DNA from: Candidatus Binataceae bacterium
GTDB taxonomy: Bacteria; Desulfobacterota; Binatia; Binatales; Binataceae
Assembly (NCBI GenBank): GCA_015478645.1
Contig: JADMIL010000007.1
Coordinates: forward strand, 3,356 to 67,355
Length of the DNA: 64,000 nt
Direction of reading: 5' to 3'
The notes beneath the pieces are model-generated. The model was given only the letters and a program-made list of their open reading frames with translations, was not told where the DNA came from and searched no databases. Numbering within the stretch: position 1 is the first letter of the stretch; every line of letters starts with the position of its first letter. Below, in pieces: positions 41,197-42,204 of the stretch. The translations under genes and the position numbers were made by a program.

Positions 41197-41300
41197 CGCC
41201 GCCGGGGGCATGGCGCGCAGTACGATCGCTTATAAGCCATCAATGCGTTGATGGTATGAATGGCCAGACGCTTGGGCTTTGCTGAGGTACAAGGTGAATT

Positions 41301-42119
41301 ATGGCGACGCTATCGGGGTACGCTCTAGCGTTGGTGAGCACCCTTCCAATCGACCATACATACGTGGCGAGCGATGATGGGTTCGCGTGGGGATGCTTTG
41401 GCCGTGATGCCGGCGGAAGGGCCCTTGCTTCAGCGGCCGGCGATTCCAAGTGCGCGAATTGTTTATCGGATCCTAAAACCATCGGAATTGTGCCGAGGCT
41501 TTATGCGGGGATCAGATACCTCAGGACTGGCGTCTGCCATCAAGCGGCGAATCGCCTGCTCTACCCTGCGGGCGTGGATGTTGCCGTTGCGGGAGGCTAT
41601 CGGTGGTCTTTCGCCCGGTTTGGTCCATACGGCAAGGGGCCATGGCCCGAATTAGCGAGCTGTGTTAAGTTAGTAATAGGGCCGAGATCGCAAGCCGGAA
41701 GCGGGTCACGCATGAAAGACGATAAAAGTACCCAACTCTCTGAGTCTGTGAGAAAGCTCTATTCCCCGGAGATGTTCGATAAGCTTGGCAGCCAGAATGA
41801 GCGCTTGAAGATCAAGCAGCAAGAGTTAGAGGCGATGGCGGCCACCTATCTTGGAGAACAATACGATCGGGCGAAGGTCAAGGACGTTGTCGCAATTCAG
41901 ATTAGTACCGATATTGAGCAGGACAAATTGCTTGGTCGGCTCGACAACAATGACCTCACGGAGGCCGACTACATAAATCAGCTTGAATGCTTATTTATGG
42001 ATTCGGCGGCCGCCTGCGAACGCATTCTGGGAGCTCAAGACTTTGAAAGGCTGTTCGGCATCCGCTCAACGGATGCTACCAAGCTGATTGATCGATCGAA
42101 CCTTCCGTTTGCCCGCTGA
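41301..42119 (+). CDS. Hypothetical protein in a low-GC, compositionally atypical segment
   Basis: An aaggtga RBS precedes the ATG. The N-terminal Cys-containing half is about 57% GC and the C-terminal acidic helical half about 49% GC, against roughly 67% for the window. No recognisable domain. Confidence 0.45.
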   Translation: MATLSGYALALVSTLPIDHTYVASDDGFAWGCFGRDAGGRALASAAGDSKCANCLSDPKTIGIVPRLYAGIRYLRTGVCHQAANRLLYPAGVDVAVAGGYRWSFARFGPYGKGPWPELASCVKLVIGPRSQAGSGSRMKDDKSTQLSESVRKLYSPEMFDKLGSQNERLKIKQQELEAMAATYLGEQYDRAKVKDVVAIQISTDIEQDKLLGRLDNNDLTEADYINQLECLFMDSAAACERILGAQDFERLFGIRSTDATKLIDRSNLPFAR

Positions 42120-42204
42120 GTATTCGATTGCTGGTTCTGCGGGCGCTCGGCGTATCGCTTTCATCTCTTTCCTTCTGGAAGAGTTCAGGGTTCACGACCT
42201 TCCG

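Follow-up and report, generated by a model that had tools for sequence, protein, structure and literature searches.

A horizontally acquired gene beside recD2 in a Binataceae bacterium belongs to an uncharacterised two-module protein family and may encode a thiol enzyme fused to its helical partner

We analysed a 64,000-nucleotide stretch of contig JADMIL010000007.1 of Candidatus Binataceae bacterium (assembly GCA_015478645.1, positions 3,356 to 67,355 of the forward strand), hereafter named the window, and focused on a gene of unusual composition that lies directly downstream of recD2. It is near-certain that this is a real, acquired gene of an uncharacterised family of two-module proteins. 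The gene is a complete open reading frame (ORF) of 272 amino acids on the forward strand (41301–42119, with the stop codon at 42117–42119), which starts with ATG 104 bp past the stop codon of recD2 (41196) and is preceded by a putative Shine-Dalgarno sequence, AAGGTGA, at 41291–41297. The 723-residue product of the upstream gene is 100% identical to the deposited ‘ATP-dependent RecD-like DNA helicase’ of Candidatus Binataceae bacterium, so that the name recD2 is correct. No terminator-like site was detected between the recD2 stop and the ORF, no promoter-like site within 41000–42700, and no Rfam match between 36 and 46 kb of the window.

The composition of the gene sets it apart from its surroundings. 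Its G+C content is 54.7% versus 65.6% for the window, with 59.4% in the N-terminal half and 50.0% in the C-terminal half, and among all sliding windows of 819 bp it ranks lowest in G+C (z = −3.4), with 0.4% of them equally low. The G+C content at third codon positions (GC3) is 0.60, as compared with 0.87 for recD2 and approximately 0.78–0.88 for the convincing genes across the window. An earlier note on this DNA had pointed out a 272-residue ORF after recD2, compositionally foreign and atypical in its codon use, in which G+C falls from about 57% to about 49%; the ORF and its deviating codon use are borne out, and the fall roughly fits the values of the two halves. Two smaller features described in the same place turned out differently. 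The AT-rich, stop-dense stretch gttaagttagtaatag (41664–41679) reads in frame as V122-K-L-V-I-G127 with the stops out of frame, and is ordinary coding DNA at the boundary between the two domains of the protein, without any disruption. The 7-bp inverted repeat (ccatcaa/ttgatgg, 41237–41254) is at chance level, given the 66 perfect 7-bp hairpins in 64 kb, i.e. about one per kb; it has no support as a terminator or an operator and was not picked out by the terminator scan.

The ORF has a large number of homologues. A word-indexed search retrieved 55 of them, and an exhaustive HMMER scan gave 642 cluster representatives at E < 1e-3, these being 50%-identity clusters spread over many phyla. The homologues align over the full length, from residue 1 to the C-terminus, with the motifs of the N-terminal domain intact, and the residues invariant in the family are all present in the window protein. 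A 93%-identical copy (L097), which has the upstream intergenic region in common with the window gene and differs from it by a 12-bp indel in the interdomain linker, gives a ratio of nonsynonymous to synonymous changes per site (pN/pS) of about 0.25, which shows that the gene is under purifying selection. The public gene call on the identical contig L081 (P0056, 586–993, corresponding to 41712–42119 of the window) begins at Met138 and holds residues 138–272 only, which drops the conserved Cys/His head domain. Taken at face value, this short call would speak for a decaying or spurious ORF; since the DNA of contig L081 is 100% identical, however, it is an annotation artefact and not the mark of a broken 5′ half. 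Similar truncated calls probably exist elsewhere, leaving the family under-annotated.

Comparison with related genomes delimits a variable segment at 41189–42696, where recD2 and a gene for a luciferase-like monooxygenase converge with their 3′ ends, with breakpoints defined by blastn within the last codons of both genes. In the closest relative, represented by two independent assemblies (L088 and L089) with a 97% identical RecD2 protein and 93% identical flanking DNA, the gene is absent: homology covers 36001–41188 of the window and resumes at 42697, and in place of the intervening 1,508 bp the relative has 526 bp of non-coding DNA that is unrelated, AT-rich, and poor in ORFs. In relatives at about 85% identity (L090 and L091), the recD2 junction carries a GT87 glycosyltransferase gene instead. 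The nearest homologues of the window protein, at 62% and 59% identity, are likewise encoded by low-GC genes (53% and 50.5%) that have different neighbours; the flanks of one (L093) have 64–67% G+C on both sides, and those of the other (L092) 65% on the right and 50% on the left. More generally, solo-type genes of the family, which are devoid of the downstream partner gene described below, have a median G+C content 4 points below that of their flanks (72 longer genome loci), and distant members reside on plasmids of Agrobacterium vitis, Phyllobacterium, and Bacillus wiedmannii; no homologue was found in phage genomes.

The atypical composition, the absence from the closest relative, the differing content of the junction and the low-GC homologues elsewhere make it well supported that this Binataceae lineage acquired the gene horizontally, at a variable spot between recD2 and the monooxygenase gene. 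The suggestion of the earlier note that the ORF is horizontally acquired cargo thus stands, with the variable presence at the recD2-VOC junction that the note had proposed to look for; an orthologue at this position in every relative, which it had named as the sign of an ancestral gene, is not what the related genomes contain. No integrase, transposase, or tRNA gene was found at the insertion site (about 40.9–42.9 kb of the window), nor were there convincing direct or inverted repeats flanking it. This lack of mobility genes, tRNA, and flanking repeats, together with the short public call, would be in line with an ancestral Binataceae gene of odd composition, or with a decaying or spurious ORF. 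In view of the missing gene in the nearest relative, the differing junctions in the others, the alignment of homologues from the first residue, and the pN/pS value, this explanation has a very slight probability.

The variable segment also contains a VOC/glyoxalase gene on the reverse strand (42205–42630, Pfam matches obtained on the identical contig L081). Its GC3 is 0.775, its product is 73.6% identical to a VOC protein encoded elsewhere in the relative L090, and at E < 1e-5 none of the other 80 family loci has a VOC homologue nearby. Because its composition is thus native, a relative has the orthologue at another place, and the other family loci lack such a neighbour, we rejected co-transfer of the two genes; the VOC gene is a relocated, lineage-native resident outside the family module. 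In Pseudomonas, a VOC gene likewise comes after the two-gene form of the family. In L088, the place of the family gene and the VOC gene is taken by a 480-bp AT-rich gap without a called gene (8281–8761), and an extra luciferase-like monooxygenase gene, missing from the window, is found at 11627–13009. A DUF433/DUF5615 gene pair (44551–45276), which we take from our own reading of the two families to be putatively toxin-antitoxin-like, lies within a further segment missing from L088 (44580–45380), where the flanking genes of L088 are only 38 bp apart. As this pair is a second small insertion in the window relative to the closest relative, several independent indels have occurred, and in this lineage the region from recD2 to the amidohydrolase gene is a turnover hot spot. 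Upstream of recD2, the window holds a conserved gene on the reverse strand (38466–38759) for a small hydrophobic protein of 97 residues, with a strong AAGGAGG ribosome-binding site; the adjoining divergent intergenic region (38760–39024) has 45% G+C. Since both this region and the 97-residue gene are kept in the relatives, this second stretch of low G+C represents native promoter DNA rather than foreign DNA.

The full-length protein was modelled with AlphaFold2 as two domains, with a mean predicted local distance difference test score (pLDDT) of 90.6 and a predicted template modelling score (pTM) of 0.90. The N-domain (residues 1–125, 41301–41675) is basic, with an isoelectric point (pI) of 8.9, and is predicted to fold on its own, as indicated by the isolated model (pLDDT 86, pTM 0.82). 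In the model, four β-strands, β1 (residues 2–10), β2 (18–24), β3 (29–31), and β4 (40–47), are followed by helices 49–56, 79–90, 100–107, and 116–124. The linker (residues 126–140, 41676–41720) is variable, of low complexity, and rich in Gly, Ser, and Pro, with a pLDDT of about 70. The H-domain (residues 141–272, 41721–42116) is acidic (pI 4.7), predicted to be all-helical, and carries two ‘LG’ motifs, YLGEQYD (183–189) and ILGAQDFERLFG (242–253). A Cys/His-containing N-terminal half and an acidic helical C-terminal half had already been recognized in the earlier note; the former contains Cys32, Cys51, Cys54, Cys79, and Cys121 as well as His19 and His80.

Conservation was evaluated on 247 distinct domains of the family. 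Cys32 is invariant (100%), Cys79 and Gln81 are each conserved at 99.6%, His19 and Asn84 at 99%, Arg85 and His80 at 98%, and an acidic residue at position 18 (Asp or Glu) at 95%; Gly34, Gly39, Tyr73, Gly77, and Gly111 are also near-invariant. The column of Cys121 consists of 70% Cys and otherwise of gaps, so that a Cys is present in every sequence that aligns there. These residues cluster in three motifs: DHTYV at the start of β2, with His19 (codon 41355–41357) as a candidate general base or metal ligand; WGCFGR, with Cys32 (codon 41394–41396) 13 residues past His19; and the family signature TGVCHQAANR, in which the segment Cys79-His80-Gln81-Ala-Ala-Asn84-Arg85 (41535–41555) begins with the first residue of helix 79–90, Cys79, a candidate nucleophile. 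No papers on the motif CHQAANR were found in the literature.

To describe the architecture of the family, 80 genome loci from many phyla were screened with hidden Markov models (HMMs) of the N-domain, the H-domain, and a third component, protein B. The N-domain is present in 79 of the 80 loci and is fused to the H-domain in 75 of these 79. Among the departures, N and H are encoded by adjacent separate ORFs in a Gemmataceae locus (L009), their signals lie in overlapping ORFs in different frames in L068, and no H-domain was found by the HMM screen in L070. In Clostridium senegalense JC122 (L023, 9583–11191), a stand-alone H gene encoding 138 residues is located directly upstream of the N-domain gene; in the product of the latter, a DUF346/fungal fucose-lectin β-propeller is joined to the N-domain, and the pair is immediately preceded by an L,D-transpeptidase gene. 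Two metagenomic members carry additional domains: P0122 (344 residues) has a cold-shock domain C-terminal to the full N-H protein, and the N-terminal region of P0172 (549 residues) shows a borderline match to the β-trefoil domain DUF569 (E 7e-5, at the curated cutoff).

In 54 of the 80 loci, the family protein (A) is followed on the same strand, after 10–60 bp, by a gene for protein B, a basic protein of about 140 residues (median pI 9.1). Comparison of the B and H profiles with hhalign gave a probability of 98.8% and an E value of 5e-17 over 127 columns, and the B HMM matches residues 162–263 of the window protein; these alignments show B to be a paralogue of H. It has its own invariant motif, D-x-RLG-xx-FP-xxx-R-xx-LW. 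Searches with B gave no Pfam, NCBIfam, PADLOC, or PHROGs match and no sequence match in the PDB; the only similarity to the Pfam family Lipase_chap consists of two sub-threshold matches, the better with E 0.044. The window gene and all of its closest relatives are of the solo N-H form, and the B HMM detected no homologue across the 64-kb window. All-against-all clustering of the ORFs within 6 kb of the 80 loci revealed no conserved neighbour besides B, the only other clusters being antisense shadows, and in five cultured genomes Pfam assigned the closest neighbouring genes to unrelated metabolism.

Members frequently lie in accessory regions, beside HEPN/MNT and AbiE genes in some plasmid copies and beside BrnT/BrnA in some chromosomal ones. 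On plasmid pAtS4c of Allorhizobium ampelinum S4, a conjugative plasmid, a distant homologue of 25% identity (L095, 6983–7843) is found on the opposite strand within a block of genes for ArdC, a ParB-N-domain protein, a 1,697-residue DEAD/DEAH helicase, DUF3085, DUF1419, and a toprim protein, and a link of this copy to plasmid establishment or anti-restriction regions is possible. On four metagenome contigs (L084–L087, about 6400–8813), the gene of the family member P0038 follows an ISL3-family transposase gene at a distance of about 400 bp, with a gene for an uncharacterised protein of 113 residues between the two; to the left of the transposase, the contigs do not share the same DNA, which suggests that P0038 moves as cargo linked to an insertion sequence.

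The window protein has no match in Pfam, NCBIfam, PADLOC, or PHROGs, and searches of PDB sequences with the single sequence and with the family profile were empty as well, in agreement with the absence of an assignable motif reported in the earlier note. Pfam was equally empty for 58 diverse members, and no member of the Peptidase_CA clan (LRAT, NLPC_P60, Peptidase_C92/C97) was found by hmmscan even with E values up to 10. PADLOC-DB v2 gave no match, at E up to 1–10, for the window protein, B, a gammaproteobacterial A, the members P0038 and P0009, and the Clostridium pair. Foldseek returned no match with E < 1, either for the full-length model against the PDB and BFVD or for the N-domain model against the PDB. 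A thioester domain adhesin (5a0l_A) ranked first in both PDB comparisons, but its E of 1.4–2.4, a template modelling (TM) score of at most 0.24, and the lack of a sequence match led us to reject this class. A type II toxin-antitoxin system was also rejected, the window having a single gene with no B in 64 kb and neither A nor B having a toxin-antitoxin domain in Pfam or NCBIfam. The same applies to secreted polymorphic toxins and effectors, as there is no trafficking domain (PAAR, Rhs, LXG, MIX, and similar), no linkage to secretion genes, and no signal peptide, since the fold starts at residue 2 with a confidently modelled β-strand (residues 2–10).

The arrangement of the invariant residues suggests how the N-domain might work. 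We tentatively propose, with somewhat less than even confidence in this part, that it is a thiol-dependent enzyme coupled to a regulatory partner. Cys79 at the N-terminus of its helix would be the nucleophile, His19 in a β-strand the general base, and Cys32, 13 residues beyond His19, the third member of the active site. This order of residues, His followed by a polar residue and then by the Cys-bearing helix, would be that of the circularly permuted papain-like hydrolases and acyltransferases of the NlpC/P60-LRAT type. Both AlphaFold models display the permuted order, with Cys79 as the first residue of helix 79–90 and His19 as the second residue of strand 18–24. The third residue is expected about 12 positions after the His and to be His, Asp, Asn, Gln, or Glu; Cys32, just past strand 29–31, fits by position but differs in type. 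The N-domain model has its best near-global Foldseek match, a weak one (97 columns, TM 0.32/0.38, E 6.6), in protein 2A of Aichivirus (7zv1_C), which belongs to the H-box/NC proteins of PLAAT/LRAT type and is homologous to PLAAT3 (bioRxiv 10.1101/2024.04.06.588386; PMC4785127); PLAAT structures are absent among the Foldseek matches listed. The protein may therefore work like a permuted papain-like enzyme; we do not assign it to that superfamily.

In such an enzyme, the H-domain would pack on the N-domain in a defined manner, as the pTM of the full-length model suggests, and, given this high score and the strict coupling of the two domains, it would be an obligatory partner that serves as a gate, an inhibitor, or a chaperone and could also be supplied in trans. 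Protein B would then be a second, diverged copy of H. The lectin fusions, the patchy mobile distribution, and the siting in accessory regions make an accessory, conflict-type role likely. For the combined statement, that a real acquired gene of a two-module family encodes a thiol enzyme carrying its own helical partner, we consider the chances to be about evenly balanced.

A number of observations weigh against a thiol enzyme of this type. There is no significant similarity in sequence, profile, or structure to papain-like, NlpC/P60, or LRAT families, and hhalign of the N-domain profile against PLAAT3 and a 120-sequence PLAAT3 alignment, a narrow profile restricted to mammalian PLAAT3 whose sequence was checked against the PDB, aligned 11 columns at best (E 0.55). 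In the papain-like superfamily, it is unusual to find a Cys at the third position of the active site. We infer the proximity of His19, Cys32, and Cys79 and the placement of the H-domain rather than taking them from distances in the model, and no member of the family has a known activity, substrate, or phenotype.

In addition, His19, Cys32, and Cys79 together with His80 or Cys121 could equally make a zinc site. The N-domain would in that case be part of a non-enzymatic metal-binding protein, a regulator or adaptor in which a structural or sensory Zn or Fe site is formed by these residues and H and B serve as interaction modules. The invariant set is indeed Cys/His-rich, comprising Cys32, Cys79, His19, His80, and Cys121 wherever it is aligned, and the cysteines are probably reduced in a protein devoid of a signal peptide; the cold-shock domain of one member and the strongly basic character of B point towards nucleic-acid binding. 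The further invariant residues Gln81, Asn84, Arg85, and Tyr73 and the glycines around Cys79, on the other hand, resemble an active site more than a zinc knuckle, no zinc-finger family is matched, and neighbouring residues such as Cys79 and His80 seldom ligate one ion. We consider a metal-binding protein of this kind rather improbable.

The thiol-enzyme proposal must also be weighed against a function that the earlier note had guessed at when it described the ORF as foreign cargo, possibly a toxin, an immunity protein, or a defence-associated protein. The foreign origin is upheld, as discussed above; the functional guess found no match in PADLOC, Pfam, NCBIfam, or PHROGs. It can be framed as a self-neutralised toxin or conflict module, in which N would be the toxic effector and the fused H and the free B its neutralisers, engaged in antagonism against bacteria or eukaryotes, in addiction, or in defence. 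Strict N-H coupling with split forms that encode H in a neighbouring gene of its own, an A+B pair that resembles a two-gene cassette with the toxin first, fusions of N to lectin-type domains such as those of chimerolectin toxins, and a patchy spread across phyla in mobile contexts, next to HEPN/MNT, AbiE, or BrnT/BrnA, are all compatible with this idea. Yet PADLOC is negative for A, B, and their variants, and neither a known toxin or antitoxin domain nor a signal peptide or trafficking domain is present. Apart from B, no secretion system or other gene is a conserved neighbour, and the window copy lacks a separate partner as well as adjoining secretion or mobility genes. A permanently fused immunity domain would, moreover, be atypical. 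This explanation is unlikely, though it deserves consideration.

If the N-domain is a thiol enzyme, it may also stand outside the described papain-like families, as an unrecognised fold or class with an H-C-C(HQ)-NR active site, held by helical keepers, H in cis and B in trans, in a mobile one- or two-gene cassette that is sometimes armed with a lectin. We regard this broader proposal as speculative and rather unlikely.

As a genomic event, the insertion of one small foreign gene between two convergent core genes is ordinary. The family itself is noteworthy, with about 640 clusters at 50% identity in many phyla, no counterpart in Pfam, NCBIfam, or the PDB, and a confident model without a fold match, and it is a reasonable target for discovery. 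Defining its chemistry would provide annotation for hundreds of hypothetical proteins, some of them encoded in organisms amenable to experiments (Lysobacter enzymogenes, Xanthomonas arboricola, Pseudomonas, and Methylobacterium, for example, and plasmids of Agrobacterium vitis), and could add a new enzyme-regulator or toxin-neutraliser architecture. On the practical side, public calls that cut the gene to its C-terminal half mask the conserved head domain.

The locus resembles the small genomic islets found between convergent core genes, with which it shares the atypical composition, the presence or absence among relatives, and the breakpoints at 3′ ends. It differs from them in that no integrase, transposase, tRNA, or direct repeats accompany it and in that the islet also holds a relocated native VOC gene. 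Chimerolectin toxins, in which a lectin domain is fused to an enzymatic or toxic domain, as in the Marasmius oreades agglutinin, are comparable to the rare family members that carry lectin fusions, of the N-domain to a propeller or of the whole protein to a β-trefoil, and that have no signal peptides; the window protein, in contrast, has no lectin domain, and the catalytic domains are unrelated in sequence.

With the PLAAT/LRAT proteins, the N-domain shares the order of a His at the start of a β-strand, a conserved residue 12–13 positions further on, and a Cys that opens a later helix, as seen when HWAIYVGDGYVVH...NCEHFVN of PLAAT3 is set against HTYVASDDGFAWGC...VCHQAAN of the window protein, and the domains are similar in size. 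The spacing to the Cys helix is, however, 47 residues here versus 78, the third residue is Cys instead of His, Asp, Asn, Gln, or Glu, and the window family has the additional invariant residues His80, Gln81, Asn84, and Arg85 and an obligatory helical partner domain that is missing from PLAAT/LRAT families. For the partner domain, the closest parallels are the lipase LipA with its foldase Lif and toxins with their immunity proteins, although in the present family the partner is usually fused in cis, a secretion signal is lacking, and the likeness is one of gene arrangement and predicted structure. In these systems, as in the N-H proteins, a catalytic module would be tied to an all-helical partner, here either fused or adjacent and joined in many genomes by a second, paralogous partner gene.

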